From: Rickettsiales bacterium
GTDB lineage: Bacteria > Pseudomonadota > Alphaproteobacteria > Rickettsiales > UBA8987
Assembly: GCA_020630095.1 (NCBI GenBank)
Contig: JAHDCD010000004.1
Coordinates: 13,580-77,579 of the forward strand
Reading direction: 5' to 3'
Length of the DNA stretch: 64,000 bases
Of this stretch, positions 1,348 through 60,876 are shown one piece after another (the stretch's first letter is position 1; each line of letters starts with the position of its first letter). A program made the translations under genes and the position numbers. Below the pieces are notes generated by a model. That model saw nothing but the letters and a program-made list of their open reading frames with translations, was not told the origin of the DNA and did not search any database.

Positions 1348-1379
1348 ATTGTAGGGGCTAATGTTTAATAAATCGTTAA
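1348..1379 (-). promoter_or_regulatory. CtrA-type box (TTAA-cgattta-TTAAA) + N10 + TACAAT, 7 nt before the ATG at 1340
   Basis: The minus strand reads cTTAAcgatttaTTAAAcattagccccTACAATaaggctaATG. The geometry matches seven other loci in the window. Confidence 0.55.
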
Positions 1380-4300
1380 GCTTGAAGGGAAATTACTTCT
1401 AGGTTATCCCATCCGATAGAGTTTACCTTCTCAATTGAAGCAACAATTTCACGTGCGCCAGTTGCGGTAGTTGTATAAGGAATCTTTTCAATAAGCGTAT
1501 TACGACGGATAGAGAAACTATCTTGTAACGCCTGCTCACCTTCAGTTGTGTTGATAACAAGGTCAACTTTACCTTCCTTAATTGCATCTACAATATGCGG
1601 ACTACCTTCAAGCACTTTATTAATTTGAGCAGCTTTAATGCCGTTAGTATTTAAGTGCTTTGCCGTACCTTCAGTTGCGGTAATATTAAAGCCCATATTG
1701 GCGAATTTTTGTGCGATAGGTAGAATGTCTTCCTTATCCTTGTTGCGTACAGAAATAAATACATTACCTGAAAGTGGTAATTTATTCCCCGTACCAAGCT
1801 GCCCCTTGTAAAAGGCGATTTCAAAGTCGGCATCGTAACCCATAGCTTCGCCAGTAGATTTCATTTCTGGGCCAAGTACTACGTCAACATCCGCGAAACG
1901 GCTGAATGGGAATACAACTTCTTTTACCGCGAATAACTGCTTAGCTTTACCTTGAGTTAAAGCTTTGATATCTTTTAGCTTTTTGCCAGCCATAACTTTT
2001 GCGGCAATTTTAGCGACAGGCACGCCAGTTGCTTTTGCAACGAATGGCACTGTACGCGATGCGCGTGGGTTAACCTCTAACACGTAAATTGTACCTTCCT
2101 GAGAAACCGCGAATTGTACGTTCATTAAACCGATAATCCCAAGCTCTTTAGCCATTTGCGTAGCTTGAGTTTTAAGCTCATCAATTTTAGCATCCGAAAG
2201 TGAATATGGCGGTATAGAACAGGCTGAATCGCCAGAGTGAACACCAGCTTCTTCAATATGCTCCATTACACCTGCGATAAAAATATCATCACCATCAGAT
2301 ATAACATCAACGTCAACTTCTGTGGCTTTATTTAAGAATCTATCAAGTAATAGAGGACCATGTTCAAAACAGTTGGGGAATTGGATTAGGTATTTAGCAA
2401 AACCCTCTGTATTATCTACAATTGCCATTGCCTGACCGCCAAGTACAAATGACGGACGAACAACCACAGGGAAACCAATTTCTTCAATTTTAACTTTCGC
2501 TTCTTCTGGAGTATTAGCAATAGCGTTTTCAGGCTGTTTTAAATCTAACTTCTCTAGAAGCTTTTTAAACAAATCTCTATCTTCCGCGTCATCAATTACT
2601 TTGGCAGATGTACCAAGTAACGGGAAGTTATTTTCGTGTAATTTGTTAGCTAGTTTTAACGGAGTTTGCCCGCCGAACTGCATATTAACACCTTTTACCT
2701 TACCGGCAGTTTGCTCTTTATAGATAATTTCAGAAACATCTTCATAAGTAATAGGCTCGAAATATAGGCGGTCGGAAGTATCGTAATCAGTTGATACAGT
2801 TTCAGGGTTACAGTTAACCATTATGCTCTCGTAGCCGTCTTCCTTGGCAGCGAAAAGTGCGTGAACGCAAGCATAGTCAAATTCGATACCCTGCCCGATT
2901 CTATTAGGGCCAGAGCCTAGAACGATTATTTTCTCCTCATCAGAAACACCTGCTTCGCAGTCTGGTTCATTTACACCGTCACCAGCGTAAGTTGAATACA
3001 TATAAGGTGTAATTGCAGCGAACTCGCCTGCGCATGAATCTATGCGTTTGAATACTGGGCGAACATCTAGTGAGTGACGAAGTGCACGGATTTCATCTTC
3101 AGTTTTACCCGCAAGCTCTGCAAGGCGCGCATCCGAGAAGCCTTTTTTCTTAACCGCAAGCATGCCGAATTTATCTTCTGGAATGCCCTGCTCTTTAATA
3201 TCTAGCTCGTAAGAAACGATTTCTTCAATTTGGTCTAAAAACCATTGATCCCATTCCGTTAATTCTTGGATTTTCTTTAATGTATAACCGCGGCGCATAG
3301 CTTCGGCTATGTACATAATACGTTTTGGGGTACGTTTTGCCAGTTCCGCATCAAGGTCTGCTGTTGCTATTGCAGCTTTATCATTTAAGCCTGAAACACC
3401 AGTTTCAAGTGAGCGTAATGCTTTTTGTAAGCTTTCTGCAAAGTTTGAGCCGATAGCCATAACTTCACCAACGGATTTCATTGCAGATGTTAAAATAGGC
3501 TCAGCGCCGGCGAATTTTTCAAATGTGAAGCGTGGTATTTTAGTTACAACGTAATCAATTGAAGGCTCAAATGATGCTGGCGTACAGCCAGTACAGTCAT
3601 TTGTAATTTCATCTAGCGTATAGCCAATCGCTAGTTTTGCGGCAACTTTAGCTATCGGGTAACCTGTCGCTTTAGATGCAAGCGCGGATGAACGGCTTAC
3701 GCGTGGATTCATTTCAATAACGACCATTTTGCCATTTTCAGGATTAACGCCGAATTGTACGTTTGAACCACCAGTTTCAACACCGATTTCGCGCAGTACA
3801 GCAATAGATGCGTTACGCATGCGCTGATATTCTTTATCCGTTAATGTTAGCGCAGGGGCAACTGTTATAGAGTCCCCCGTATGTACACCCATAGGGTCTA
3901 CGTTTTCAATGGCGCAAATAATAATGCAGTTATCAGCTTTATCGCGGACAACTTCCATTTCATACTCCTTCCAGCCAAGAAGTGATTCATCAATAAGCAC
4001 TTGATTAGTTGGTGAAGCATCTAAGCCTGAAGCTACGATTGCTTTAAATTCTTCCATTGTGTTAGCAATACCACCACCTGTACCACCTAGGGTAAATGAT
4101 GGGCGGATAATTGCCGGCAAGCCTGCAGTTTTAATGAACTCTAGTGCGTCATCAATATTATCAACAACAGTATTAGCGGGCACGTTTAAGCCGATTTTTG
4201 CCATAGCCTCGTTGAAGCGGGCGCGGTTTTCAGCTTTATCTATAGAGTCTGGCTGAACACCGATAAGCGATACGTTATGTTTTTCTAAAATGCCAAGCTC

Positions 4301-4609
4301 GTGAAGTTCAAGTGCGCAGTTTAATGCCGTTTGACCACCCATTGTAGGCAGTAAAACATCCGGCTTTTCTTTAGCGATAATTTTTTCAACAAACTCTGGA
4401 GTGATAGGCTCAATATAAGTCGCGTCCGCCATGTTGGGGTCGGTCATAATTGTAGCAGGGTTGGAGTTTACCAGAATTACGCGATACCCTTCTTCCTTCA
4501 ATGCCTTACAAGCTTGAGCGCCGGAATAGTCAAATTCGCATGCTTGACCTATAATGATAGGGCCAGCGCCGATAATTAATATTGATTTTATATCTGTTCT
4601 TTTTGGCAT
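1376..4609 (-). CDS. carB: carbamoyl-phosphate synthase large subunit
   Basis: The ~1077 aa product has duplicated ATP-grasp halves and the [31 protein letters not shown]-terminus. The start was moved to the MPKRTD methionine at 4609; the track start at 4645 adds 12 unlikely residues. Confidence 0.97.
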
Positions 4610-4700
4610 AGTATTAGCAGATGAGCATATAAGAAGGTTAAGCATATTAGAAGCCCAACTTCTTATCTGCTTATATGCTTATTCCTCTTATATGCTAAAT
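4610..4700 (-). repeat. ~90 bp palindromic leader element directly upstream of the carB start; first 42 nt shared with the lipA leader
   Basis: The minus strand reads ATTTAGCATATAAGAGGAATAAGCATATAAGCAGATAAGAAGTtgggCTTCTAATATGCTTAACCTTCTTATATGCTcatctgctaatactATG. The two arms are inverted copies of each other. Confidence 0.7.
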
Positions 4701-4774: not shown

Positions 4775-5020
4775 TTAGCCTAAGAAGATTTTAAGCATAG
4801 CAAACATACCGCCCAATATAGCAAATGCCATGATATACATTTTGTTAGTAAGCTTATATTCAAGAACTTGTAAAGAGTTCTCAAGGTCAGATTTTGTAGC
4901 AACACCATCGCCAATATCAGTAATTACTTCAACAACTTGCTGGGCTTGCTTTTTGGTAAAGCTCTTATTCTTCATAAGATGTTCTATAGCTTGATGTGTA
5001 TCTATAATTTGTGCTACCAT
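4775..5020 (-). CDS. small C-terminally membrane-anchored coiled-coil protein (DUF1640/CCDC90-like)
   Basis: The sequence MVAQIIDTHQAIEHLMKNKSFTKKQAQQVVEVI...ATKSDLENSL with a C-terminal TM helix resembles DUF1640 proteins. The start was set at 5020 to avoid overlap with dcd. Confidence 0.5.
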   Translation of the reverse strand: MVAQIIDTHQAIEHLMKNKSFTKKQAQQVVEVITDIGDGVATKSDLENSLQVLEYKLTNKMYIMAFAILGGMFAMLKIFLG

Positions 5021-5057: not shown

Positions 5058-5621
5058 TTATACCTTTGGAAGGGTAACACCTTTTTGTTGCATATATTTA
5101 CCAGCTTTATCTGCGTATGAGGTTTCGCATGGTTGATCGCCCTTTAAGAATAAGAACTGACACACACCTTCATTAGCATAAATTTTGGCAGGAAGTGGCG
5201 TAGTATTTGAGAACTCTAGAGTTACATGACCTTCCCAATCTGGCTCAAGCGGGGTAACATTTACAATTATACCACAACGCGCATATGTAGACTTACCTAA
5301 ACAGATAGTTAAAACGTCACGCGGGATTTTAAAATATTCCGTAGTGCGAGCAAGTGCAAAGCTATTTGGTGGAATAATGCAAACGTCGCCCTTGAAATCT
5401 ACAAAACTATTTTCGGAAAAGTTTTTAGGGTCAACAGTTGCAGAGTGAACATTGGTGAAAATTTTAAACTCGTCAGCAACGCGGGCATCGTACCCGTAAG
5501 ATGACAAACCATACGATACTATTTTATTGCCATCGACCTCGCGGATATTGCCATCAACAAATGGTTCAATCATTGAGTGGTTTTGGGCTAAATCTCTTAT
5601 TGCTATATCGCTTAGTATCAT
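5058..5621 (-). CDS. dcd: dCTP deaminase
   Basis: 187 aa. [11 protein letters not shown]...EPF...SYGYD...[23 protein letters not shown] is the typical Dcd pattern. Confidence 0.93.
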
Positions 5622-5623: not shown

Positions 5624-5652
5624 TTTGTTTGTGTTTGTGTTTGTGTTTGTGT
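5624..5652. repeat. hexanucleotide microsatellite (TTTGTG)n, about 4.5 units, starting 3 nt upstream of the dcd start codon
   Basis: Read directly as tttgTTTGTGTTTGTGTTTGTGTTTGTGtag. On the dcd strand this is (CACAAA)n sitting where an RBS would be. Confidence 0.9.
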
Positions 5653-5670
5653 AGGTATCAAACTAAATTT

Positions 5671-5739
5671 TGTCATTCCCGCGCAGGCGGGAATCTCATA
5701 CAAATTCAGAGGAGATCCCCGATCAAGTCGGGGATGACA
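5671..5739. repeat. ~70 bp palindromic (MITE/RPE-like) element with TGTCAT...ATGACA termini
   Basis: The sequence is tgtcattcccgcgcaggcgggaatc...gatccccgatcaagtcggggatgaca. Each arm is itself a hairpin. A second copy in opposite orientation lies at 29521-29592. Confidence 0.8.
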
Positions 5740-10963: not shown

Positions 10964-10992
10964 TTAAGTATCTATAGATAATTTAATAAAAA

Positions 10993-11024
10993 TTAACCAA
11001 ATCTTAAGAAATATGCTTTAAAAT
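10993..11024 (+). promoter_or_regulatory. CtrA-type box TTAAC-N6-TTAAG + N10 + TAAAAT, 6 nt before the ATG at 11031
   Basis: Reads aTTAACcaaatcTTAAGaaatatgcttTAAAATacccatATG. It is nearly identical to 13214-13251. Confidence 0.6.
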
Positions 11025-11030
11025 ACCCAT

Positions 11031-13208
11031 ATGGGACAAGATACAACATACGGCGGCCTATCCTTTGAAGAATATACCAATGGTTATGGAAGGGATAGCG
11101 GTCGAAAAATAGGGGCTGCTGGATTACCATTTGAATTTTCTGTATCTGGCTTTTTAAATCACTGGCTAGATTTAGAAGAAACCTCTGCAAGTGAGTTTTA
11201 TGCAATTCATAAACTGTCTGACTTTGAGGTGGATTATTCAGATTTTGAAAAATTAATATCTCCACCATCAAGAGAGAATGGCAGTTATTCGCTAGGTGAT
11301 AATTTACATATATATCTACAATCTGCATTACCTAAAAGTATGAAAGAGCATTCTTGGGCTTTAAGATATTCATCTCAGAAAGAAATTGATGCGATAGGAG
11401 CAGAGATTGTAGAGGCAGATATTAGCATTTTTGAACAAATTACAAAGGCTGATCCAAGAACTATATTAGCCCCTTATATAAAGCCAGCTGAAAGAGTTAA
11501 TGCACAGAATTACCCTTCTGAATTTTTAACAAAATTATTAAAAACCTTAAGAAAAGCTAATGATTTACAGGGCTCTTTGGGAGGAAGCTTTCCATTTGAA
11601 GAGATTGAATTCTTCAGAAAGGTAGATGATTTCTATCAGTTTCTTACTAAAGGCACAATCCCTGAAAAAAAAATGCTAAGTCTACTTGAATCAACGTATG
11701 ATTTAACAGACTCAGATATCAACTTTATTTCAGATGCTCTTACGGAGGCTGAGACTCAAGGCTATCCGAAAGATTTCTTTTCAAAAGAAATCGACAAAAT
11801 TATAGATCAGGTAAAAAATCAAGAGCAAGGCGAGGTTTTACAACTTAGCGATTATGAATTAATGAATAAATTTGCTAGAATAGTTGATGCTCCTATAGAA
11901 TGTTTATACGGGCTAAGGCCCTTAACATACTCTGATAAAACAAGGCAAATTAGTGCTATATGCGAAAAAATATCATCTTTTGCAGGTGAAGAGTTAGCGA
12001 ACTTAGCTGAAGAGCATTTTCAAAGTATTGAAGGCATTGATATTGAAAGACTCATTGAAATTAAAGAGGAATCTGGAGTTACAGGTAGAAAGCTACTTGG
12101 TTATGCGCTTAGTTTAATTCGGTTGTCTGAAGGGATGACTCAGGCTGAACTTGGCGATAAGGCTGACTTAAGGCCGCAGAAAGTTTCCTCTATGGAAATA
12201 CATACTAGAACCAGTATAAAAAATAGCTCAACTAGAGCGCAAAAACCCTCTCAGATAGAAGCATATCTTGACGGGTGTAATACTGATAAAAAGTTTAGAG
12301 GCATAATAGAAAGAATATGTAAAAAATATGATATTGATACAGTTAAAAACTTAACTGATAGAATTTATAAAACAGATAATGTGAATGAAGCCGTATATTT
12401 ACTTACAAAATTATATGAAACTTCACTGACAGCTATTGATAGGAAAGCCCGTAAACTAGACCCTGATTGTATTACATATGTTAAAATAAAAAACAAAAAA
12501 ACTCAATTAAAGCCTAAAGAAGTTAGACTTACATTAGGTATATTAGAAGTTAAAGCTGAACATAGGCAGCATTTTGAGGGGCTTATAAACCTTACTAATT
12601 TACTTGAGGCAGAAACTGAACTTGGCAGCGCTTTGAGAATAGTTAGAGAAAGTTACGACTTAACTACCACTGATATTAAAAATCGCCTAGGTGTTACTAG
12701 ACAGGCGGTCAATAATGCTGAAATAAAAGGCTGTAAGGCATCTACTGCAATGAATTATCTAAACGCTTGTGGGGCTACTAGAGATGTACGCTATATGGTT
12801 GCCGTTACAAGTGAGCATGCCGAATTTATACCAGAATTACTATATGAGGTAGTTAACAGGGTCTCAATTGACATAATGGATACTGATAATAACTTATCTG
12901 CTAGAGCTATAGTGGCTGATAATATGGGTATAAGCGTAAAAGAATTTAATAGCATACTATCCTACGAAACAAAACCCAATAAAACTGAAATTAGGGAGTT
13001 GTGCAAGTTAACTAGAGATAATTTAGCCAATTACCTTACCGATAAAGATTCAACCTATTTAGAAAATTCAATTGATAAAACTCGTACAAATAAAATAACA
13101 AAATCTGGAGCGTATAAGGAGCGCACCATTAGGCACCCTTCTGTAAATACTAAAGCGGATCATTGGCGGACTCTTAGCGGTCCTACTAAAATGTCTAAAA
13201 TTACTTAA
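11031..13208 (+). CDS. large multi-HTH (XRE-like repeat) protein, paralogue A (725 aa)
   Basis: At least three HTH-like modules: GRKLLGYALSLIRLSEGMTQAELG, LRIVRESYDLTTTDIKNRLGVTRQAVNNAE and ARAIVADNMGISVKEFNSIL. It shares blocks with 13252-15450. Confidence 0.7.
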   Translation: MGQDTTYGGLSFEEYTNGYGRDSGRKIGAAGLPFEFSVSGFLNHWLDLEETSASEFYAIHKLSDFEVDYSDFEKLISPPSRENGSYSLGDNLHIYLQSALPKSMKEHSWALRYSSQKEIDAIGAEIVEADISIFEQITKADPRTILAPYIKPAERVNAQNYPSEFLTKLLKTLRKANDLQGSLGGSFPFEEIEFFRKVDDFYQFLTKGTIPEKKMLSLLESTYDLTDSDINFISDALTEAETQGYPKDFFSKEIDKIIDQVKNQEQGEVLQLSDYELMNKFARIVDAPIECLYGLRPLTYSDKTRQISAICEKISSFAGEELANLAEEHFQSIEGIDIERLIEIKEESGVTGRKLLGYALSLIRLSEGMTQAELGDKADLRPQKVSSMEIHTRTSIKNSSTRAQKPSQIEAYLDGCNTDKKFRGIIERICKKYDIDTVKNLTDRIYKTDNVNEAVYLLTKLYETSLTAIDRKARKLDPDCITYVKIKNKKTQLKPKEVRLTLGILEVKAEHRQHFEGLINLTNLLEAETELGSALRIVRESYDLTTTDIKNRLGVTRQAVNNAEIKGCKASTAMNYLNACGATRDVRYMVAVTSEHAEFIPELLYEVVNRVSIDIMDTDNNLSARAIVADNMGISVKEFNSILSYETKPNKTEIRELCKLTRDNLANYLTDKDSTYLENSIDKTRTNKITKSGAYKERTIRHPSVNTKADHWRTLSGPTKMSKIT

Positions 13209-13213
13209 TAAAA

Positions 13214-13245
13214 TTAACCAAACCTTAAGAAATATGCTTTAAAAT
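13214..13245 (+). promoter_or_regulatory. CtrA-type box TTAAC-N6-TTAAG + N10 + TAAAAT, 6 nt before the ATG at 13252
   Basis: Reads aTTAACcaaaccTTAAGaaatatgcttTAAAATacccatATG. Confidence 0.6.
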
Positions 13246-13251
13246 ACCCAT

Positions 13252-15450
13252 ATGGGACACGGGCCTAAATATGGAGGATTATCATTTGATGATTATACCA
13301 ATGGTTATGGAAGGGATAGCGGTCGAAAAATAGGGGCTGCTGGATTACCATTTGAATTTTCTGTATCTGGCTTTTTAAAATATTGGCTTGAACAAGAAGA
13401 AATATCCGTAAAAGATTTCTATACGGGGCATAAATTATCTAACTTTGGGGTTGATTATCAAAGTTTTAAAAGTTTAGTTTATCCCCCCTCAGCAGATAAA
13501 GGTGAATTTGCACTAGGCGAAAAGTTGCGAGTATATATACAGTCTATTTTACCTAAAAAGATGGCAAATTACGTTTGGGTTTTAAGACACTCTGCTTATA
13601 ATGAAAATAGCTCAGGTATGGCACAGGTGGTTGAGGCTAAAATAGAAATATTAGACTCCATTGTAAAAAAAGATCCTAAAGATTTAAAAGCTCCAAACTT
13701 AAAATCTGCAAAAAGAATCTCTACTAAAAATTACCCATCAGAGTTTTTATCAAAATTATTGGAAGCCTTAAGAAAGGCTAATCATATGCAAGGCTCAATA
13801 GGTGATATTTTTCCATTTGAGGAAGTTGAGTTTTATAGAAAAATAGATGATTTATATCAATTCTTAACTCAAGGGTCAATATCAGCCGATCAAATGCTAG
13901 ATTTTCTTGAAGCTGACCATACACTTTTAGATTCTGATATATTATTTATATCTAAAGCTTTAGTTGAAGCTGAAAAGCAAGGCTATCCAACAGATTTCTT
14001 TAGCAAGTCTATCGATGTGGTAATAGAGCGTGAAAAGAGTAAAGAGTGCGGTGGTACAGCTAAGCAGTATAGTGATTATGAATTAATGAGTAAATTTGCA
14101 AAGCTAGTAAACTGCCCATTAGAAAGCCTTTATGGGTTAAAGCCCCTTACTCAAGTTAGAATCACTGAACAAATTAACCATATTTGTGAAAGAATAGCAA
14201 CTTTTGCCGACCCCAAATTAGCCGTTTTGGCAAAATCACATTTTGAATCAATAGAAGGTATTGATATTCCTCGCTTAGTTGAAATTAAAGAGGAATCTGG
14301 AGTTACAGGTAGAAAGCTTCTTGGCTATGCGTTGAGCTTGATAAGATTATCAGAGGGGGTGAGTCAAACGGATGTTAGTGCAAAGATGGGAGTAAGTCAA
14401 AGAGCTGTTAGTGCCATGGAGTACTTTGAAAGCTTTAGGGTTAGTGGTGTTCATAGAAAAAATCAAAAACCGTCAGAAATAGAAAATTACTTAGATGCGT
14501 GTGATGCTGATAAAAGTGCTAGGAAAACCATTGATAGAATTTGCAAAAAATATGACATCGATACAGTACAAAAGCTAGAAGGCAATTTTAATGCCTCTAA
14601 AACAACTTTAGAAGCCATTGTTAATTTAATAAAATTACATGAAGTTCCTTTTAAAGTTCTGGGAAGGGAAATTAAACAAAAAGGATTAAAGTGTGAGGCT
14701 TCAGTTGAATTTTTAAAAAAAAAATCTCAACCACTGACTGAGTCTGATACAAAGATAATAATGGACACTCTTGGTGCAACTGCAGAAGAAAGAGAAATAG
14801 TCGAGGGTGTAATTCAAGAAAATAGCATGACAGCCTTACTTCAAAATGCAACTCATAGCGGTGAGGCACTAAAGATAGTGCGAGAAGGACTTGATTTAAC
14901 CGGTGAACAACTTGCTAAATTATGTGGCATTTCTAGGCGAACTATACAAAACCAAGAAGCTACTCCAGAAGTTAGCTCTATAAATATAATTAAGAGACTT
15001 AATGTATGCGAAGTTTCTCCAGAAGTTAGATATTATGTAGCCTTAGCAAGCTCTAGAGTTGAGTTACTACCTGAAATACTTTATGAGGTAGTTAACAGGG
15101 TCTCAATTGACATAATGGATACTGATAATAACTTATCTGCTAGAGCTATAGTGGCTGATAATATGGGTATAAGCGTAAAAGAATTTAATAGCATACTATC
15201 CTACGAAACAAAACCCAATAAAACTGAAATTAGGGAGTTGTGCAATCTTGTAAAAGAGTCTTTATCTGCTCATTTAACTGAAAGAGAAGTTGTATTTATA
15301 GATTCTTCTTTAGACGCTCTATACATAGATACTTTAAAGAAAGATGGCACGAGAAGAGAAAGAAAGATATCCATTCCCTCACCAGCTGCTAAAGCGGATC
15401 ATTGGGAAAACTTATCATGCCCTGTAAATATTAATTATTTGGGTGAATAA
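13252..15450 (+). CDS. large multi-HTH (XRE-like repeat) protein, paralogue B (732 aa)
   Basis: Collinear with paralogue A and carrying nucleotide-identical blocks. HTH-like modules include LIRLSEGVSQTDVSAKMGVSQRAVSAME and LKIVREGLDLTGEQLAKLCGISRRTIQNQE. Confidence 0.7.
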   Translation: MGHGPKYGGLSFDDYTNGYGRDSGRKIGAAGLPFEFSVSGFLKYWLEQEEISVKDFYTGHKLSNFGVDYQSFKSLVYPPSADKGEFALGEKLRVYIQSILPKKMANYVWVLRHSAYNENSSGMAQVVEAKIEILDSIVKKDPKDLKAPNLKSAKRISTKNYPSEFLSKLLEALRKANHMQGSIGDIFPFEEVEFYRKIDDLYQFLTQGSISADQMLDFLEADHTLLDSDILFISKALVEAEKQGYPTDFFSKSIDVVIEREKSKECGGTAKQYSDYELMSKFAKLVNCPLESLYGLKPLTQVRITEQINHICERIATFADPKLAVLAKSHFESIEGIDIPRLVEIKEESGVTGRKLLGYALSLIRLSEGVSQTDVSAKMGVSQRAVSAMEYFESFRVSGVHRKNQKPSEIENYLDACDADKSARKTIDRICKKYDIDTVQKLEGNFNASKTTLEAIVNLIKLHEVPFKVLGREIKQKGLKCEASVEFLKKKSQPLTESDTKIIMDTLGATAEEREIVEGVIQENSMTALLQNATHSGEALKIVREGLDLTGEQLAKLCGISRRTIQNQEATPEVSSINIIKRLNVCEVSPEVRYYVALASSRVELLPEILYEVVNRVSIDIMDTDNNLSARAIVADNMGISVKEFNSILSYETKPNKTEIRELCNLVKESLSAHLTEREVVFIDSSLDALYIDTLKKDGTRRERKISIPSPAAKADHWENLSCPVNINYLGE

Positions 15451-15560
15451 AGACTTTACAAGGTCAAAGCCTGCCTTATTCTCAACTATTGTTTAATGGT
15501 TTCGCTGGCGCGAAACATACACTTACTTCGCAGTGCAAAATTAGCTCAAGCTAATTTTGA

Positions 15561-18038
<2,478 letters not shown>

Positions 18039-18117
18039 TTTAGCATATAAGAAGGATAAGCATATTAGCAGATAAGAGGTAATTATTGCTTATATGCCAA
18101 TCCACTAGTATACTTAT
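18039..18117 (+). repeat. leader element upstream of lipA sharing ~42 nt with the carB leader
   Basis: TTTAGCATATAAGAAGGATAAGCATATTAGCAGATAAGAGGTaattattGCTTATATGCcaatccactagtatacttatATG. About 37-38 of the first 42 positions match the carB copy, in the same orientation relative to the gene. Confidence 0.7.
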
Positions 18118-19071
18118 ATGCTGATGAATGAGCTGAAAAAGATACGTCATCCTGAAAAACAGGGTAATGCTGATAATGTAGCGCCGAAGCGTCCTGATTG
18201 GATTAGAGTTAAAGCGCCGCAATCGGAAGGTTATAAGAAAACTAAGGAACTTATAAAATCTAATAATCTTTATACTGTATGCGAGGAAGCCGCATGCCCT
18301 AATATTGGCGAATGTTGGGAGCAAAAGCATGCTACAGTGATGATTCTTGGCTCTATTTGCACGCGCGCTTGTGCGTTTTGTAATGTGGAAACGGGTAAAC
18401 CAGATATGCTAGACCCACATGAGCCGGAAAATTTAGCTAATGCTGCGAAAGAGCTCGGGCTTAACCACATAGTTATAACATCGGTTGATAGGGATGATTT
18501 GGATGATGGTGGTGCGCAACATTTTGCAGAATGTATTATACGTTTACGTAATGCTACGCCGAATACTACAGTTGAGATTCTTACACCAGATTTCCGCGGT
18601 AAGGAAGGCGCGCTAGAAATTGTAGTAGCGAGTAAACCAGACGTGTTTAATCATAATATTGAAACTGTACCATCGCATTACCGCACTATTCGCCCGTATG
18701 CGCGTTATTTTGAAAGTTTGCGTTTATTGCAACGCGTTAAAGAATTAGAGCCGATGATGTTTACTAAGTCTGGCCTTATGGTTGGGTTAGGTGAAACGGA
18801 TGATGAGGTTTATCAGTTAATGGATGATTTACGCTCGGCTGATGTAGACTTTTTAACGATTGGTCAATATTTACAGCCAACACCGAAGCATGCGCCAATT
18901 GACCGCTACGTTACGCCTGAGCAGTTCGATAAATATAAAGAAGTTGCTTATTCTAAGGGCTTCTTAATGGTTGCGAGCTCTCCGTTAACGCGCTCGAGCT
19001 ATCATGCAGGTGATGACTTCGCTGAAATGCGCCGTAACAGAGAAAAGAAGTTTAAGGAAGCCAATGCATAA
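18118..19071 (+). CDS. lipA: lipoyl synthase
   Basis: Contains the [13 protein letters not shown] and [10 protein letters not shown] radical-SAM/auxiliary cluster motifs. 317 aa. Confidence 0.95.
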
Positions 19072-25317: not shown

Positions 25318-25410
25318 AATATAATAATAAGGTTGGGGTTTGAGTTGGAGTTTGAGATAAGTTTATTCTGAAATAAAAATACCCAAACACTAACTCAAAC
25401 ACTAACGAGC

Positions 25411-28983: not shown

Positions 28984-29460
28984 TTATACGAATTTAATAT
29001 CCAGAATTTCGTATTCATGGGCGCCGTTGGGAGTGTTAATTGTAACATCATCCTCAACCTCTTTACCAATAAGGCCACGTGCGATAGGGGTAGTTAAAGC
29101 AATTTTGCCATTTTCAAGGTCAGATTCTGCTTCGCCAACAATTTGGTAAATCACTTCTTTGTTAGTATCTATATTAAGCAACGTTACTGTTGTGCCAAAC
29201 ACTACACGATCCGTGTTAGACATAGCAGATACATCAATAATTTCTGCATGGGCAATTACGCCTTCAATCTCAGCTATGCGACCTTCAATGAAACCTTGCT
29301 TCTCACGCGCTGAATGATATTCCGCATTCTCCTTTAAATCGCCATGTTCACGGGCATCCGCAATTTGTTCAATAATAGCGGGGCGGTCAACTTTCTTTAA
29401 TTGGTCAAGTTCAACTTCTAAAGCCTCAAAACCGGTTTTTGTTATTGGTAATTTTTCCAT
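28984..29460 (-). CDS. greA: transcription elongation factor GreA
   Basis: Contains [22 protein letters not shown]...[20 protein letters not shown]. Confidence 0.95.
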
Positions 29461-29520
29461 AATAATTTTTCTTATTTTAGCGCCTTCCGACTATATAGGC
29501 TGATTGTAATATTAGTCAAT

Positions 29521-29592
29521 TGTCATCCCCGCGAAGGCTGGGATCTTATAAAACAGACCTATCAAAAGATTTCCGCCTTCGCGGGAATGACA
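29521..29592. repeat. second copy of the ~70 bp TGTCAT...ATGACA palindromic element (inverted relative to 5671-5739)
   Basis: Reads tgtcatccccgcgaaggctgggatc...gatttccgccttcgcgggaatgaca. It lies in the divergent greA / 29615 intergenic region. Confidence 0.8.
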
Positions 29593-29614
29593 AGAGGTAG
29601 GCTTTATATAAAAA

Positions 29615-30010: not shown

Positions 30011-31522
30011 TTGGGATCTCATGAAAATTCTATATTTGAGAAAATGGACTTTAATTTACTTTTAAAAGGCTTGGTAAAAAAGGATTTTCCTACGTTTATG
30101 AGGAAGTGCTTTTCTACCGTTAACCCAGGGATTAGGTATCAGCATAATTGGCATTTAGATTTAATTGCCGAATATTTAGATGCCATAGATAAGGGGCAGA
30201 TTAAGCGCCTGATAATTAATATTCCACCACGTTATTTGAAATCATTCACTTGCAATGTGACCTACCCTGCTTGGGTGCTAGCGAATAATCCTACAAAGCG
30301 AGTTATATCTGTTTCGTATAGCCAAGCTCTTAGCTTAAAACATTCTATTGATTCGCGCGCGCTAGTTGAAAGTAAATGGTTTAAGCAATGTTTTAAAGAT
30401 TGTGCGCTGTTGGCGGATCAGAATGAAAAACATAAGTTTATGACCGAACAGCGCGGCTTCCGCTTTGCGACATCTGTTGGTGGCACGCTTACCGGCGAAG
30501 GTGGAGATTTAATTATTATAGATGACCCGCAGAACCCGATTAACATCCATAATCATGCGTATCGTGAGCATAGTATGGAATGGTTTTCCACTGTGCTTTC
30601 CAGCCGTTTAGATGATAAGAAAAACGGCGCAATGTTACTTGTTATGCAACGTTTGCATGAGGAGGATTTAACAGGAAAACTACTTAAACGCGGTGGCTGG
30701 GAGCATTTATCTATCTCCGCTCTGAATGAAAATGAAATTACTTATTATAGTTTTAAACAAATAAAAGCAAAAGAGTCGAATAAAGAATCTGTTATAGCTA
30801 TAACAGATTTTATTGATAATAATCTATTTAATTCAATAAGATCTGAATATTTAAGAAAGCCTAATTCTCCTTTACATTTTACACGTGAAGGATTTGATGA
30901 GTTGGATCAAATAAAGGCCGATTTGGGTGATCATGCATTTGCCGCGCAATATTTACAAAATCCTGCCCCCGCTAAAGATGGTATGGTTAGGCGCGATTGG
31001 CTATGTTATATATCTGAACCCTCTGAAGCGCCTGAGCAGATAATTTATTCATGGGATACGGCAATTAAAACTGCATCGCATAATGATTATACAGTTTGCA
31101 CGCGCTGGAAGACTTATAAGAATTTCTATTTCTTGGATAATTTATATCGCGGTAAATTGGAATACCCTGAACTGCTTAATTTAATTGATGAATTTAGTGC
31201 AGATGCTGATGTGGTATTGCTAGAGGATAAAGCCTCTGGGCAGTCTTTAATTCAAGACTTACGGAAGAATAGTAATCATCCTGTAATTGCCATTACCCCA
31301 CATAAAGATAAATTAACGCGCTTTGCGGCAACAACTCCGCTATTTGAGGCGAGTAAAGTAAAGATTAATCAGGATAGAGATTGGCGCATAGATTTAGAGC
31401 GTGAATTGCTAACATTTCCGAACTCAAAACACGATGACCAAGTAGATTCAATTAGCCAGTTTTTAAACTATATGAAAAATAGAAAGATAGAAATTTCTAA
31501 GCCCAACTTACGGAGGTTTTAA
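30011..31522 (+). CDS. phage terminase large subunit-like protein (orphan)
   Basis: Contains a Walker A-like IINIPPRYLKS, a Walker B DLIIIDDPQNP, and C-terminal RNaseH-like nuclease Asp motifs (YSWDTA, KHDDQVDS). The start may be the TTG at 30011 or the ATG at 30044. Confidence 0.8.
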   Translation: MGSHENSIFEKMDFNLLLKGLVKKDFPTFMRKCFSTVNPGIRYQHNWHLDLIAEYLDAIDKGQIKRLIINIPPRYLKSFTCNVTYPAWVLANNPTKRVISVSYSQALSLKHSIDSRALVESKWFKQCFKDCALLADQNEKHKFMTEQRGFRFATSVGGTLTGEGGDLIIIDDPQNPINIHNHAYREHSMEWFSTVLSSRLDDKKNGAMLLVMQRLHEEDLTGKLLKRGGWEHLSISALNENEITYYSFKQIKAKESNKESVIAITDFIDNNLFNSIRSEYLRKPNSPLHFTREGFDELDQIKADLGDHAFAAQYLQNPAPAKDGMVRRDWLCYISEPSEAPEQIIYSWDTAIKTASHNDYTVCTRWKTYKNFYFLDNLYRGKLEYPELLNLIDEFSADADVVLLEDKASGQSLIQDLRKNSNHPVIAITPHKDKLTRFAATTPLFEASKVKINQDRDWRIDLERELLTFPNSKHDDQVDSISQFLNYMKNRKIEISKPNLRRF

Positions 31523-36497: not shown

Positions 36498-36573
36498 GAT
36501 CTCGTAGCTCAGTCGGTAGAGCAACTGACTTTTAATCAGTGGGTCGGGAGTTCGAGCCTCCCCGAGATCACCA
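36498..36573 (+). tRNA. tRNA-Lys (anticodon UUU)
   Basis: Cloverleaf read by hand. The acceptor GATCTCG pairs with CGAGATC. The D arm is GCTCAGTCGGTAGAGC, the anticodon loop is CTTTTAA, and the T arm is GGGAG-TTCGAGC-CTCCC. The discriminator is A and CCA is encoded. Confidence 0.93.
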
Positions 36574-36781
36574 ATCATTTCAATGACTTATCACGACCCA
36601 CTGCTCTAATTAACTTCCCAAAATCAACTCTAATAGGCACCGAATAGGCACGGTAAGTAAAAACTATGAGTATCATGGCACTAAAAGTAGCAACTCATGG
36701 TTTATTTTTTTCTATCTATATTTTAATGAATCTAACTAGTTTATCTTGTTTTTAAACTGGGTAATTATAACCTAATCAGCT

Positions 36782-37132
36782 ATGATAGACACTTACGAAA
36801 AAGCCTCTGCTCAAATGCTAGCTGCACTATGTGTCCGTAATACATTTCTTGAAGATTTGCATTCTGGAACCGTTCCAACTTCAAAAACTGGAGATTATTC
36901 AGACATTACTGTTAAAACTCCTTATGGTGAAATACCATGGAATGAAGTTTCACGTTTAAATGACGATGAAATGAAAATACTAATGAAAGAAGTTGTTAGT
37001 AAGCTTTACACCTTTTTTCAAAATCAAAATGATGATGATTTTATGGACGGCTTTGTAAATACAGCAATGAGATATATTGAGCATTGGGATGAGCCCAAAA
37101 TTGATAGTAGATTATTGTCTTTTAAGAATTAA
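36782..37132 (+). CDS. hypothetical protein (116 aa)
   Basis: ORF only. Confidence 0.4.
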   Translation: MIDTYEKASAQMLAALCVRNTFLEDLHSGTVPTSKTGDYSDITVKTPYGEIPWNEVSRLNDDEMKILMKEVVSKLYTFFQNQNDDDFMDGFVNTAMRYIEHWDEPKIDSRLLSFKN

Positions 37133-37224
37133 AGACATTTTCGGTCGTTTTATTTGCAAACTTGCAAATTCATTCTTGATTAATTTATATCAAGATGTCA
37201 GAATTTAAATTGGTGTAAATTACT

Positions 37225-39885
37225 ATGAATCAAGCGCAAGTTGAAAAGAAGCTAAGTGAGTTAGTTAGGAATATAAATAAAGAAGATTTTATATATGATT
37301 TTCTTATGTGCTACGGCATACCCAAAGCTACCATTACCTTAATGAAGAAAGGTAGTAGAGATTTATCAAAGGTTGAGCATCAAAAAATACTAAAGAAGAA
37401 AATATTCTTTCATGAAGAACTTAATGGCGGCAGTTTATACGAGGCTATTGATAAGTTAAAAAATGATAGTTCAACATTCAAGCATGACCCTAATTTTATA
37501 ATAGTAACCGATTATAAAAACATTGTCGCAATTGATGTTAAAGCAAATGATACTTTAGACTCCGAAATAGAAAATCTTCATAAGAAGTATGATTTCTTTT
37601 TACCTTTAGCAGGTATGAAGAAATATAATGTTGCTGATGAAAATGAAGCTGATGTTAAAGCTGCAGAAAGAATGGCAAAGCTTTACGATCAGTTGCAGAG
37701 CGATAATGAGTTTGAAACAGAACAAGAAATTCATCACTTAAACATCTTCTTATCTCGCCTATTATTCTGCTTTTTCGCTGAAGATACTGATATGTTTGAA
37801 GGTGGAGATAACATCTTCACAAATTCAATTAAAAGCCATACCCAAGAAGATGGCTCAGATTTAAATGTATATTTAGATAGGTTATTTGAAGCACTTAACA
37901 CTACATCAAGAGATGATTACCCAGACCATTTTTCTAATTTTGATTATGTAAATGGTGGCTTATTTGCTGAAAATATTAAAGCCCCTCAATTCACAAGAAA
38001 ATCAAAAAGATTAATTGAAGATTTAGGCGAGCTTGATTGGTCTGAAATTAATCCTGATATTTTCGGTTCAATGATTCAGGCCGTTATCACCCCTGAACAT
38101 AGGGGTGGTTTGGGCATGCACTACACATCTGTGCCTAATATCATGAAGGTTATTGAGCCTTTATTCCTTGATGAGCTAAAGGAAGAATTTAAAAAGAATC
38201 ATAACAATGAAAAGAAACTAAATAAGCTACTTTTACGGTTAGAGAAAATTAAAATTTTCGACCCTGCCTGTGGTTCAGGTAATTTCTTAATTATTGCCTA
38301 TAAAGAACTTAGAGAGCTTGAGATTAATATATTCGTTAGAATTAACGAGCTTTCGCAATCAAGGCAGCTTCCGCTATCTCGAATTAAATTATCTCAATTT
38401 TACGGTATAGAGCTTGATGATTTTGCCCATGAAATAGCCATTTTATCACTATGGCTTTCTGAGCATCAGATGAATAAATTATTTAAAGAAAAGTTTGGCG
38501 ATGCTCCAAACCTTCTGCCTTTAAAGCCAAGCGGCAATATTGTTCATGGCAATGCAACCAGAATTGATTGGGAAGAAGTTTGCCCTAAAGAAAAAGATGA
38601 TGAAATCTATATTTTGGGCAACCCTCCTTATTTAGGCTCAAGTATGCAAGACGCTACCCAAAAAGAGGATATGGCAATTGTTTTTGATGGGTTTAAAAAT
38701 TATAAAAACTTAGATTACATAGCCTGCTGGTTTTATAAAGGTGCTGAATACATATCGGGCATCAATTCAAAATATGCTTTTGTATCAACTAATTCCATAT
38801 GTCAGGGGGAGCAAGTTGGACTCTTATGGCCTACAATTTTTGATAAAAATATTGAAATTAACTTTGCTTATACTTCATTTAAGTGGAGTAATAGTGCTAA
38901 AAGTAAGGCTAAAGTTATCTGCGTTATAGTTGGTCTAGCCAATAAGCAAGAGTTAAGTAAAAAAATATTTAATGAGATATCTATCTCTGAAGTTAAATCA
39001 ATAACTCCATACTTAACTTCAGGTAGATATGTTAAGCTAGAGAGAAGGTCAAAGAATATAAGCCCTTCATTACAGTCAATGGTTTGGGGGAATAAGGCTA
39101 CAGATGGAGGGAACTTTATATTAACCATTGATGAGGTTAATTCTTTAAAAAATGATTTTCCTGATAGTGTAAAATTTATAAAAAAATATATAGGTTCTGT
39201 AGAGTTTATAAGGGGAGTTGCGAGATGGTGCTTGTGGATAAGGGATAAAGATTTAGATAAAGCAAAAGAGATTCCTTTTATATTTGATAGAATTGAACGG
39301 GTCAAAAATGAAAGACTTTTGAGCAAAGCTGCGTCTACTAGGGCGTCAGCTAATAAGGCTCATAAGTTTATTCAAATACAGGGGGAACCTGATAAAGCCT
39401 TAATTATACCTAGCGTTTCTTCAATCAATAGAGATTACATTCCGATAGGTTTCGTTGAATCTGATACTGTTGTTAATGCTCAATGTTATGTTGTTTATAG
39501 ACCAGAATTTTATCTTTTTGGAGTTCTATCTTCTAAAATGCATATTACTTGGGTTAGAGCCGTAGCAGGTAAGTTGAAAAATGATTTTCGCTATTCTTCG
39601 GCTCTTTGTTACTCATCATTCCCAGTTCCCGAACTAACTGATGCTCAAAAGAAGATAATAGAAGACTGTGCGTTAAATGTTTTAGATGAGCGAGATAGGC
39701 ACCCAACAAAAACAATGGCAGAGCTTTACGACCCTGATAAAATGCCTGATGGCCTCCGCCAAGCCCACAAAATGTTAGATGAAGCGGTTGAAAAATGCTA
39801 TCGCAAAAAACCATTTGAATCAGACGAAGAACGCCTTGAACACCTGTTTAACCTATACGAAAAAATGACATCGGAGGAAGTGTAA
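37225..39885 (+). CDS. MmeI/PglX-family N6-adenine DNA methyltransferase (886 aa), no recognisable N-terminal PD-ExK nuclease motif
   Basis: Motif I is FDPACGSGNFLI and motif IV is GNPPYLGS. The family-typical segments LDWSEINPDIFGSMIQAV...GLGMHYTSVPNIMKVIEPLFLDEL and the C-terminal AELYDPDKMPDGLRQAHKMLDEAV are collinear with MmeI as I remember it. Confidence 0.85.
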   Translation: MNQAQVEKKLSELVRNINKEDFIYDFLMCYGIPKATITLMKKGSRDLSKVEHQKILKKKIFFHEELNGGSLYEAIDKLKNDSSTFKHDPNFIIVTDYKNIVAIDVKANDTLDSEIENLHKKYDFFLPLAGMKKYNVADENEADVKAAERMAKLYDQLQSDNEFETEQEIHHLNIFLSRLLFCFFAEDTDMFEGGDNIFTNSIKSHTQEDGSDLNVYLDRLFEALNTTSRDDYPDHFSNFDYVNGGLFAENIKAPQFTRKSKRLIEDLGELDWSEINPDIFGSMIQAVITPEHRGGLGMHYTSVPNIMKVIEPLFLDELKEEFKKNHNNEKKLNKLLLRLEKIKIFDPACGSGNFLIIAYKELRELEINIFVRINELSQSRQLPLSRIKLSQFYGIELDDFAHEIAILSLWLSEHQMNKLFKEKFGDAPNLLPLKPSGNIVHGNATRIDWEEVCPKEKDDEIYILGNPPYLGSSMQDATQKEDMAIVFDGFKNYKNLDYIACWFYKGAEYISGINSKYAFVSTNSICQGEQVGLLWPTIFDKNIEINFAYTSFKWSNSAKSKAKVICVIVGLANKQELSKKIFNEISISEVKSITPYLTSGRYVKLERRSKNISPSLQSMVWGNKATDGGNFILTIDEVNSLKNDFPDSVKFIKKYIGSVEFIRGVARWCLWIRDKDLDKAKEIPFIFDRIERVKNERLLSKAASTRASANKAHKFIQIQGEPDKALIIPSVSSINRDYIPIGFVESDTVVNAQCYVVYRPEFYLFGVLSSKMHITWVRAVAGKLKNDFRYSSALCYSSFPVPELTDAQKKIIEDCALNVLDERDRHPTKTMAELYDPDKMPDGLRQAHKMLDEAVEKCYRKKPFESDEERLEHLFNLYEKMTSEEV

Positions 39886-40419
39886 ATGAAGTGGAAGGAC
39901 TTACATACCTTAGGTTATGATCAATCAGGAAATATTAATATACCAGCCTTGCAGGATTCTTTACCTGATACGCCACTAGAAGTTCATGAAGATTTACTTT
40001 CTGGCTTTGGTAAAAACGATGATTTCCTTGAGTTATACGGTGATATTGACTTATCAAAAATTAAGTGGGAGAAGCATAAATTGAGAGCAAAAGAGCTTGT
40101 TGAATGTAGCTACTATAATAAATACTCCGACTGGCTTGAAGGTATGTCAGAGAGAATGGATAATTATAGCACTTTAGGATGGGATTGTTTACATCACACC
40201 GAAAAAGTTATGAATTATTGGAAAAACAATTCAACTTGGTATAGAAGACCCATCTTCTTTGATTTTGATCCTAGCAGTATATCTCAAGAAAAATGCCTTA
40301 GACTTTTAGAGGGGCATACTCGAATAGGTATTTTAAAGGGTGCATTAAAAAACAATATCTTAGACAAAAATAGTGAGCATGAAATATGGCTAGGTAAACT
40401 ACTGGGAGGACATAATTAA
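39886..40419 (+). CDS. small protein of unknown function (177 aa), possible ParB/Srx-like LLEGHTR motif
   Basis: The start abuts the methyltransferase stop (TAAATG). LRLLEGHTRIGIL faintly resembles the DGHHR motif of ParB-like domains. Confidence 0.45.
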   Translation: MKWKDLHTLGYDQSGNINIPALQDSLPDTPLEVHEDLLSGFGKNDDFLELYGDIDLSKIKWEKHKLRAKELVECSYYNKYSDWLEGMSERMDNYSTLGWDCLHHTEKVMNYWKNNSTWYRRPIFFDFDPSSISQEKCLRLLEGHTRIGILKGALKNNILDKNSEHEIWLGKLLGGHN

Positions 40420-41699
40420 TGACTAAATGGGAAGATAAACTGGGTAATTCAGGACTAATTGCAGAATTTGAAGAAATGGAGGGTTTGATACCTCAAGTTG
40501 AAGACATACTTGATGAAGATGACTTCACTGAGTTCCGAAGGTTTAAAAAGGTTTTTAAATATTGCAAAGAAATTATAGAACAAATAGACCCCGAATTGAT
40601 TCCTTCACAGTTTTATAGCTTATTTAATAAAAATAACGCTATTAACAACAGCTTAAGGCAATTTATATCTACAAAAAATTCATCAAATATAACAGCTGCT
40701 TCAAATGGCATTGATGTCTATTTAAATAATATTAATAATCTTGCTCCACTATTAAAGAGAACAGCAAATTTAAAGCCCTTAAAAGGTTTGGAAGAACTGA
40801 CTGATAAAGCTATTGAAAAACTCAAAGAAGAGGAAAAAAGTCTTAAAGAAAAGTTATCAAAGTTAGACTTGGAAATTAAAAATCGAAAAAAGCAAATCGA
40901 AACACTTGATCAATCTTTAGAGAGTAAAAAATCACAGATCGACAACTTTGTTAATGATTGGCAAGAAAAATTTGCTTCTTCACAAGAATCAAGATCAACT
41001 TCATTTAACGATGAGTTAAAAGATAAGGGTAAAAAATATGATGAATGGTATTCAAAAACTAGGGAAGAAGTTCAAAAGGAAATAGATAGTTTCTATAAAA
41101 GTAATTCTGAAAAATCAAAAGTTGAATACGATTCATTTAATGACAAAATTACAAAATTCATAGAAAGTGCTAATGGGAAGCATAATGAAATCATTAACTT
41201 ATACCAATTGGTTGCAAAGGATAGTGTCGCTGGTGGGCATGAATCTAATGCAGAAAAAGAAAAGAAGTCTGCTAATATTTGGAGATGGGGTGTAATTGGT
41301 TCGGTAGTTGTGATTGTAGTGTGGAATATGTTTTCGCATTTAGTTGGCTTTAGTATAACTAATGAGAAAAATGAATTAGATATCTATTCTCTTGTTAAAT
41401 CCTTAACAATTAATTTAGTAACATTTTTTGTAATTGGATATTCGTCAAAGCAATCGGCCATGCACAGAAAGAAAGAGCATGAGGCTAGAAAGTTTGCTCT
41501 TGAAACTCAGGCATTTGATCCATTTATCTCATCATTAGAGAAAACTGAACGAGATGAGCTTAAAGTTAAAATTACCGAACACCTTTTTAAGGCTAATGAT
41601 TCTGATAAAAATTTAGATATATCTAAAAATGATTTCGATATATCTGATAAAACTCTGACTAAAATTGTGGAATTAATAAAAGCATTTAAAGATAAATAA
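40419..41699 (+). CDS. coiled-coil protein with two C-proximal TM helices (426 aa)
   Basis: The start overlaps the upstream stop (TAATGA). Contains a long heptad-like region EEKSLKEKLSKLDLEIKNRKKQIETLDQSLESKKSQIDNF. The TM segments are IWRWGVIGSVVVIVVWNMFSHLV and LVKSLTINLVTFFVIGYS. Confidence 0.6.
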   Translation: MTKWEDKLGNSGLIAEFEEMEGLIPQVEDILDEDDFTEFRRFKKVFKYCKEIIEQIDPELIPSQFYSLFNKNNAINNSLRQFISTKNSSNITAASNGIDVYLNNINNLAPLLKRTANLKPLKGLEELTDKAIEKLKEEEKSLKEKLSKLDLEIKNRKKQIETLDQSLESKKSQIDNFVNDWQEKFASSQESRSTSFNDELKDKGKKYDEWYSKTREEVQKEIDSFYKSNSEKSKVEYDSFNDKITKFIESANGKHNEIINLYQLVAKDSVAGGHESNAEKEKKSANIWRWGVIGSVVVIVVWNMFSHLVGFSITNEKNELDIYSLVKSLTINLVTFFVIGYSSKQSAMHRKKEHEARKFALETQAFDPFISSLEKTERDELKVKITEHLFKANDSDKNLDISKNDFDISDKTLTKIVELIKAFKDK

Positions 41700-41703
41700 T
41701 AAT

Positions 41704-43626: not shown

Positions 43627-43629
43627 ATT

Positions 43630-44778
43630 ATGGATAAAGATGAATTATTAGATATTTTAGGAGATGACTCTTTAGGCTTACTTAATGTTAAGCCTAAAGC
43701 AAAAGCCGTTACTGCTGATGAAAGGCTTGTAGAAACTCTTGAGCAGATTAATGCCTTCTATGATGAAAATGGAAAGGAGCCAGAGTTAACTAGCGATTTA
43801 ACAGAAAGAAAGTTATTTAATCATTTAAAATCCATTAGAGAAAATGAACAGTTTATTGAGTCTTTATTGCCTCTGGATAAATTTTCTTTGCTAAAAAAAA
43901 CTAAAAAGAAATCCACTAATGAACTTTTAGATGATGATGAATTTGGATTGTTAGACTCAGCTTCGGATAGTATCTTCACTTTAAAGCATATTAAAAAAGT
44001 TGATAAAACTAGCCCAGATTACATAGCCCGCAGAAAACCCTGTAAAGACTTCACGCTATTCAATGAAAAGTTTATTAAATGTCATGAAGATATACAATCT
44101 GGCAACAGGAAGATACTAGATTTTAAAAGAGGTGAAGATATGCGTGTAGGCCATTTCTTCGTTTTGAAGGGAATGCTAGTTTATATAGATGAAATCAATA
44201 ATGTTAGAAAAGATGACCATGGAAAATTAGATGCCAGATTAAGAGCTATATTTGAAAATGGAACTGAATCAGACTTGCTTTTAAGGTCTTTAGCTAAAGA
44301 ATTATATAAAGATGGTAGAAGAGTTAGTGAAATTAAAGGCTCTGGTCTTGAAGAGTTAACTTCAGCTAATGAAGAAGAATTAACAGGTTATATCTATGTA
44401 CTTAAATCTTTAAGTAAGAAACCACAAATACAAGATTGCAAAAATTTATATAAAATAGGTTTTTGCACAACCTCAGTTGAAGATAGAATTAAGGGAGCAG
44501 AAACTGATCCGACTTACCTTATGGCACCAGTTGCAATAGTTGAAAAGGCAATTTGTTATGGTGCTAAAGCCAAGCAATTTGAAAGCTTGATTCACAGGTT
44601 TTTTGACTCTGCTAGGCTTGATATAGAAGTAACAGAAAATGATGGATACAAATATAAGCCTAACGAATGGTTTAATGTCCCTCTATCCGAAATTAATAAG
44701 GCTATCGACTTGTTAGATAATGGACAGATTATTAATTATAAATTCAATTCCAGTAAGGATTGTATAGAACTAATTTAA
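43630..44778 (+). CDS. T5orf172/Mug113 (GIY-YIG superfamily) domain protein (382 aa)
   Basis: The C-terminal GYIYVLKSLS...LYKIGFCTTSVEDRIKG...LIHRFFDSARL...NEWFNVPLSEINKAIDLL matches the T5orf172 pattern. Confidence 0.75.
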   Translation: MDKDELLDILGDDSLGLLNVKPKAKAVTADERLVETLEQINAFYDENGKEPELTSDLTERKLFNHLKSIRENEQFIESLLPLDKFSLLKKTKKKSTNELLDDDEFGLLDSASDSIFTLKHIKKVDKTSPDYIARRKPCKDFTLFNEKFIKCHEDIQSGNRKILDFKRGEDMRVGHFFVLKGMLVYIDEINNVRKDDHGKLDARLRAIFENGTESDLLLRSLAKELYKDGRRVSEIKGSGLEELTSANEEELTGYIYVLKSLSKKPQIQDCKNLYKIGFCTTSVEDRIKGAETDPTYLMAPVAIVEKAICYGAKAKQFESLIHRFFDSARLDIEVTENDGYKYKPNEWFNVPLSEINKAIDLLDNGQIINYKFNSSKDCIELI

Positions 44779-60874: not shown

Positions 60875-60876
60875 TT

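Follow-up and report, generated by a model that had tools for sequence, protein, structure and literature searches.

REP units are imperfect palindromes of 20-40 nt that carry a conserved GTAG-like 5′ tetranucleotide, and RAYT genes, which code for Y1 transposases, are often flanked by them. REPs stabilise upstream mRNA, and those that lie no more than about 15 nt from a stop codon lower translation of the gene before them. Rickettsia palindromic elements (RPEs) are lineage-specific palindromes of AT-rich alphaproteobacteria that measure 100-150 bp, occur at or inside gene ends and typically lie in-frame within ORFs. MITEs are shorter than 500 bp, AT-rich and intergenic, are bounded by terminal inverted repeats and give rise to transcripts that form a stable stem-loop, and their target-site duplications can decay in old copies (PMC10969869). 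The Correia elements or NEMIS of Neisseria are palindromes of about 100 nt located beside start codons and co-transcribed with their neighbours, and Correia elements are also known to create promoters (PMC2649163). Together with REPs, ERIC and Correia elements (PMC2229807, PMC2649163) provide the analogy for hairpins that may stabilise or process mRNA.

Here we describe two copies of an imperfect palindrome located upstream of carB (copy A) and lipA (copy B) in the window, that is, the whole 64-kb stretch of DNA analysed. The interpretation that we favour, with moderate confidence, is that both loci are copies of a small non-autonomous MITE/REP/Correia-like palindromic repeat rather than a dedicated regulatory leader. 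The kind of element is well known, and the sequence family was not previously catalogued.

Comparison with described palindromic repeats

The element resembles prokaryotic MITEs such as the Coxiella QMITE and ERIC (PMC10969869), being short (~85 nt), non-coding, AT-rich and intergenic, with inverted-repeat ends, a predicted stem-loop in its transcript and copies that differ by internal indels. The spacers that hold it have a G+C content of about 29-30%, the open frames that run across it are incidental, and both copies share the same ends (AGCATATAAG...CTTATATGCT). Two copies are seen in the 64 kb. Unlike MITEs, the element has no known parent insertion sequence and has arms built from sub-repeats of 8-9 and 17 nt instead of a simple terminal inverted repeat plus core. 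It also differs from them in that no target-site duplication was found at any plausible boundary (flanks CCTAAA and CTGCTA for copy A, ACTTAG and GAATGA for copy B), and such a duplication may have decayed. No transposase or RAYT (Y1_Tnp) domain was detected in about 60 window ORFs scanned with Pfam.

As in Correia/NEMIS (PMC2649163), the palindrome is of about 100 nt, lies beside start codons and would be co-transcribed with its neighbours, and by analogy its hairpin could be a target of RNase III or modify expression. In contrast with these elements, it shares no sequence similarity with them and resides in an alphaproteobacterium, not in Neisseria; among their hallmarks, neither a TA target duplication nor a consensus promoter was found in the two copies, and the IHF site WATCAANNNNTTR was not seen by eye. 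The likeness to REP/BIME lies in an extragenic palindrome between co-directional genes of transcription units with an mRNA hairpin as its likely role, whereas the unit of ~85 nt and the lack of a GTAG-like head and of a RAYT gene in the window set it apart. The stop-codon effect of REPs is nonetheless relevant to copy B because this copy begins 1 nt past the gyrB stop. Finally, compared by description, the element behaves like an RPE in overlapping the start of lipA and in giving carB an in-frame extension, and differs from RPEs in length and in lying outside the usual in-frame position within ORFs. The organism is not a Rickettsia, since carB and a GTA/phage-tail-like cluster are present.

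Anatomy of the two copies

The 42-nt block shared by the two loci is real and stands far above chance. In the window, the pattern TTTAGCATATAAGARGRATAAGCATA has two exact matches and one match with three mismatches against 0.00 expected from 100 shuffles, and GCATATAAG occurs 7 times against 1.03 expected, six of the seven occurrences being inside the two elements. The upstream arms are identical at 38/42 positions, in agreement with the 37-38 estimated in a preliminary description of this DNA, and a repeat search links the carB and lipA loci by a 47-nt repeat at 87%. This similarity is limited to the element, the flanks of copies A and B being unrelated. The coordinates of both copies and of the adjoining genes are given in Table 1.

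Table 1. Positions in the window of the two palindromic elements, their parts and their neighbouring genes.
Feature	Positions	Strand	Remarks
Copy A, whole element	4613-4699	minus	~85 nt imperfect palindrome before carB
Copy A distal (upstream) 42-nt arm, TTTAGCATATAAGAGGAATAAGCATATAAGCAGATAAGAAGT	4658-4699	minus	38/42 identical to 18039-18080
Copy A hairpin tip, 4 nt	4654-4657	minus	TGGG on the minus strand
Copy A gene-proximal arm (inverted partner)	4621-4653	minus	plus-strand reading ATGAGCATATAAGAAGGTTAAGCATATTAGAAG; holds the in-frame ATG at 4645
Copy A extra ATTAGCAG unit	4613-4620	minus	repeat reaches 4 nt from the carB ATG
carB, carbamoyl-phosphate synthase large subunit	1376-4609	minus	1077 aa from MPKRTD; Pfam
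Small upstream ORF	4775-5020	minus	co-directional with carB; coiled coil, C-terminal hydrophobic tail
Copy B, whole element	18039-18125	plus	~85 nt imperfect palindrome, gyrB stop to lipA start
Copy B upstream 42-nt arm	18039-18080	plus	begins right after gyrB stop TAG 18036-18038
Copy B loop	18081-18085	plus	
Copy B gene-proximal arm	18086-18125	plus	complete but degenerate; E 0.26 against the arm profile
gyrB	15603-18038	plus	co-directional, upstream of copy B
lipA, lipoyl synthase	18118-19071	plus	317 aa from ATG 18118

Each arm consists of two 17-nt direct sub-repeats with AGCATATWAG and can equally be read as a series of ATAAG-type units spaced 8-9 nt apart. The four ATAAG repeats described earlier are all exact in the distal arm of copy A, while copy B has three of them plus one ATTAG. 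Copy A is nearly symmetric: its 30-nt arms are 83% complementary in the repeat search, its proximal arm scores higher than its distal arm against the nhmmer arm profile (38.2 versus 33.6 bits), and the first 33 nt of the lipA upstream arm match the carB proximal arm (29/33) almost as they match the carB distal arm (30/33). The lipA inverted partner had been described as partial; it is in fact complete and degenerate, with a 7-nt insertion (ACTAGTA, 18104-18110) that interrupts it. The gene-proximal arms of the two copies agree at about 25/33 positions plus an indel and are thus less conserved than the upstream arms, a difference that might reflect constraint on the latter and counts against a plain repeat. 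The indels of the proximal arms are independent, with a 9-nt loss in copy A and the 7-nt insertion in copy B, so the hairpins of the two copies are not in register. Judging from the sequences, these separate indels look like the decay of insertions.

Both copies bear on the annotation of the genes that follow. Copy A lies between the stop codon of the small ORF, which has a weak CCDC90/DUF1640-like match, and carB. The canonical MPKRTD start of carB is the ATG at 4609-4607, immediately past the position 4610 at which the edge of the carB leader had been placed, and an in-frame ATG at 4645, inside copy A, extends the ORF. One public CarB annotation (P0122, 1089 aa) begins at this upstream ATG and thereby gains 12 residues before MPKRTD; the element has probably misled the choice of start codon here. 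For lipA, the public call (P0001, 315 aa) starts at the second in-frame ATG, 18124. The gyrB-lipA junction, with an identical copy B, also occurs in two short Logan contigs; the organism is present in the sequencing runs SRR14415273 and SRR14415275.

Predicted folding and the case for a regulatory RNA

As RNA, copies A and B are predicted to fold at -29.8 kcal/mol (z -3.55) and -30.0 kcal/mol (z -4.15), respectively, which bears out the long hairpin anticipated in the preliminary description. The accompanying proposal that the hairpin sequesters the translation-initiation region fits lipA and fails for carB. In copy B, the outer stem (18113-18124) encloses ATG 18118, the first in frame for lipA, and reaches the second, with a pairing probability of about 0.95-1.0 over 18113-18121, while the carB ATG pairs at 0.04-0.4 and is largely unpaired in the dominant fold. 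Likewise, an inverted copy ending 14-30 nt before the ATG describes copy A, in which the hairpin ends 14 nt from the carB start codon, and not copy B, in which the stem overlaps the lipA ATGs. Because of the sub-repeat periodicity of its arms, copy A has a second possible pairing register, 4682-4659 with 4636-4613 (truncated fold of -23.9 kcal/mol), which reaches 4 nt before the carB ATG.

Stable and significant hairpins, a paired lipA start codon and two registers in copy A are what one would expect if the transcribed palindrome were a cis-regulatory RNA, that is, a 5′ leader or intercistronic switch shared by carB and lipA and acting on their translation. Such control might work by way of an RNA-binding protein acting in trans, or by a switch of pairing register that opens or closes the initiation region. 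RNA structure around the start codon should be important in this organism because most window genes lack a Shine-Dalgarno sequence: a Shine-Dalgarno-like motif was present in about 5/32 inspected start regions, and translation initiation appears to be largely independent of it. We nevertheless regard this explanation as unlikely. The carB ATG is largely free in the dominant fold, and the antisense strand is predicted to form hairpins about as stable as those of the sense strand (-31.0 versus -29.8 kcal/mol for copy A, -27.7 versus -30.0 kcal/mol for copy B); both strands folding about equally is the behavior of a DNA palindrome, not of an RNA selected on one strand. An RNAalifold consensus of the two copies is uninformative, the 3′ arms being out of register and two sequences being unable to test covariation. 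At gathering thresholds, Rfam recognises a tRNA alone in the whole window, and permissive scans of both loci return miRNA/snoRNA noise that stays below threshold (≤20 bits, the thresholds being ≥33.8 bits), consistent with the earlier remark that no named riboswitch or leader was known to have this sequence. Moreover, we know of no regulatory logic shared by carB and lipA, and the leader is not conserved before either gene in any relative examined (see below).

Both copies face the same way and adjoin start codons, which counts against a plain repeat, is compatible with a regulatory RNA and had been taken as an argument against random insertion. This shared orientation carries almost no weight, because there are two copies, which agree by chance in 50% of cases, and because copy A is nearly symmetric.

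Distribution of the element

The window contains two copies, and an nhmmer search of it with the arm profile yields no third. Outside the two elements, AGCATATWAG has no exact copy in the window; sites with one mismatch number 29 there, the expectation for the window as a whole being about 20.5 +/- 5. We scanned for exact matches to a 22-nt degenerate core pattern, GCATATAAGNNGNNTAAGCATA, in collections from which the source genome is absent, namely one genome per species for 185,579 species, 241 million metagenome records and IMG/VR. The scan returned 9 genome, 15 metagenome and 1 viral match. All 24 genome and metagenome matches were inspected and proved to be single chance matches with the rest of the element absent; the lone IMG/VR match (L033) was treated as chance from being single. 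On the basis of this exact-pattern scan of collections lacking the source genome, the element family appears to be lineage-restricted. Six-frame translations of the element found no match among 5.8 billion proteins and 1.84 billion cluster representatives, BLAST of the element against plasmids gave no match, and a literature search with sub-strings of the element retrieved nothing. Exact look-ups of P0001, P0122, the dcd product and the proteins of the ORFs at the window edges gave no strain variants.

The element is absent before carB and lipA in the loci of five relatives, and this speaks against the idea of a gene-specific leader. In two of them (L031 and L032), carA overlaps carB by 8 nt, greA follows and there is no leader; in the other three (L027, L029 and L030), other genes lie upstream of lipA, the spacers measure 42, 4 and 50 nt, respectively, and the nhmmer arm profile found nothing. 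In the genome under study, carB stands alone: carA is missing upstream and greA (28984-29460) lies 24 kb away, while the nearest relatives keep the order carA-carB-greA. The adjacency of gyrB and lipA is unique to this genome, so both copies sit at junctions that differ from those of relatives. A true empty site was not seen because synteny with the nearest relatives is not conserved (LipA ≤81%, CarB ≤71% identical). The closest LipA, at 81% identity, belongs to the MAG GCA_964588995.1, the closest named one, at about 73%, is from a "Rickettsiales bacterium", and the closest CarB is 71% identical; these low values point to an isolated, uncultured alphaproteobacterial lineage.

Binding sites and promoters as alternatives

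A second explanation, which we also hold to be improbable, places the function in the DNA: the four AGCATATWAG sites of each element, two direct and two inverted, would bind one protein, putatively a transcription factor or a nucleoid-associated protein, and the gene that follows would thereby be repressed or insulated. This 10-mer is the best-conserved part of every arm, all 7 exact copies of it are inside the elements, the 2+2 inverted layout resembles multi-site operators, and conservation is higher in the upstream arms than in the remainder of the element. On the other hand, no solitary or paired sites precede any other gene in the 64 kb, and the spacers between the 10-mers are conserved too, as in a copied element and not as in convergent sites. 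The spacing of 8-9 and 17 nt does not follow the helical phase, the sites coincide with no promoter consensus that a bound protein could block, and no candidate regulator is linked to them.

The preliminary description had listed three options, a regulatory RNA structure, a binding array and a MITE carrying an outward promoter, and our results favour the MITE-like repeat of the third without its promoter. In this third reading, a Correia-like mobile repeat would bring its own transcription start to carB and lipA after genome rearrangement had parted them from their ancestral partners; the creation of promoters by Correia elements is documented (PMC2649163). Gene-facing TTAGCA-17 nt-TATAAG and TTAGCA-17 nt-TATTAG arrangements exist in the upstream arms of copies A and B, respectively; carB has lost its usual carA partner, and lipA follows the unrelated gyrB. 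Yet a consensus scan calls no sigma-70-like promoter in either element, since TATAAG and TATTAG lack the near-invariant T at position 6; the -35-like hexamer matches at only 4/6 positions, and transcription of carB could already come from a promoter-like site ahead of the small ORF (5055-5027, minus strand). We therefore consider an outward promoter very unlikely. Equally hard to credit is a modular cassette in which a lineage-specific protein would read the 2+2 AGCATATWAG array on DNA or RNA, copies in fixed orientation wiring carB, lipA and others into one regulon.

No intrinsic terminator was recognised at either element, the stems being AT-rich and a T-run after the stem absent. Separately, the CtrA box (TTAA-N7-TTAA), the DnaA box, the ARG box and the GANTC/CcrM-associated CIR repeats were dropped as candidates after giving no match by eye, as was the PyrR attenuator, which had no match by eye or in Rfam.

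A probable small palindromic dispersed repeat

For the small palindromic repeat that we favour, we infer mobility, transcription through the element and effects on mRNA as follows. A master copy would have been an inverted repeat of ~85-90 nt with arms made of short ATAAG-type arrays, which landed in, or was copied into, the short co-directional spacers between the small ORF and carB and between gyrB and lipA. With co-directional genes on either side, the copies are probably transcribed, and each would then form an intercistronic hairpin of about -30 kcal/mol within a polycistronic mRNA. Such a hairpin might act as a barrier to 3′ exonucleases or as a substrate of RNase III, and by analogy with the repeats described above it may stabilise or process the mRNA. 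Effects on neighbouring genes would be by-products of the hairpin and do not imply a dedicated control common to carB and lipA. For copy B, possible side effects include dampened termination at gyrB, whose stop codon the hairpin follows at 1 nt, and dampened initiation at lipA through occlusion of its start codon.

Other features of the window

A second palindromic family, unrelated to the first, is present in the window. It has the form GTCATYCCCG...CGGGRAT with G+C-rich cores and is found at 5669-5738 and 29520-29593 (TTGTCATTCCCGCGCAGGCGGGAATCT; GAGATCCCCGATCAAGTCGGGGATGACA), together with an inverted pair beside greA, all in spacers of divergent genes. It resembles repeats common in Rickettsiales-like and amoeba-symbiont genomes. 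The presence of a second palindromic family shows that this genome accumulates such elements, tolerating or propagating them, and speaks for the dispersed-repeat reading. Other repeats include a perfect 18-nt AT-only palindrome (ATTAAAAATTAATAATTT / AAATTATTAATTTTTAAT, 4-nt loop, 15560-15599) that ends 3 nt before the gyrB ATG at 15603, and an inverted repeat at 25332-25406 with 23-nt arms, one G/T-rich and one C/A-rich (GTTGGGGTTTGAGTTGGAGTTTG / CAAACACTAACTCAAACACTAAC), in the glutaredoxin-sspB spacer. A (GTTTGT)n / (CAAACA)n microsatellite at 5624-5652 lies directly upstream of the start of dcd (5058-5621, minus strand) and is a possible slipped-strand site.

The window as a whole has a G+C content of 36% and carries housekeeping genes, a GTA/phage-tail-like cluster and an MmeI-type restriction enzyme. 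Tandem paralogues at 11031-13208 (725 aa) and 13252-15450 (732 aa) share segments of 70-97% nucleotide identity over 10989-15450 and are preceded by the same 30-nt region; a weak HTH_3/XRE match in the second is their only Pfam match. A defence-island-like block (36498-44778) beside a tRNA gene (36498-36570) comprises an MmeI-family type IIL restriction-modification enzyme (37225-39885), a DEAD/ResIII helicase (41704-43626), a T5orf172/MUG113 protein (43630-44778) and several ORFs without a family. The GTA- or prophage-like tail cluster (46735-63985) codes for a GTA_TIM host-specificity protein, DUF2460 and BR0599 proteins, minor tail/tape measure, tail tube and tail terminator proteins and a phage lysozyme. 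An HTH and Fic/DOC pair is inserted at 54128-55166, and the large terminase is located apart from the cluster, at 30011-31522.

Implications

The element is of practical value for annotation, as it supplies spurious in-frame starts that make CarB 12 residues too long in a public annotation and leave the lipA start ambiguous, and it may mark rearrangement junctions. If orientation-locked copies were found before a defined set of genes, they would clearly exemplify the spread of a regulatory module by a mobile repeat, and the modular cassette, if true, would amount to a regulon spread by a mobile palindromic repeat. If the interpretation as a small palindromic dispersed repeat is true, the element would represent one more lineage-specific family of small palindromic repeats, in a poorly sampled, AT-rich lineage of alphaproteobacteria.
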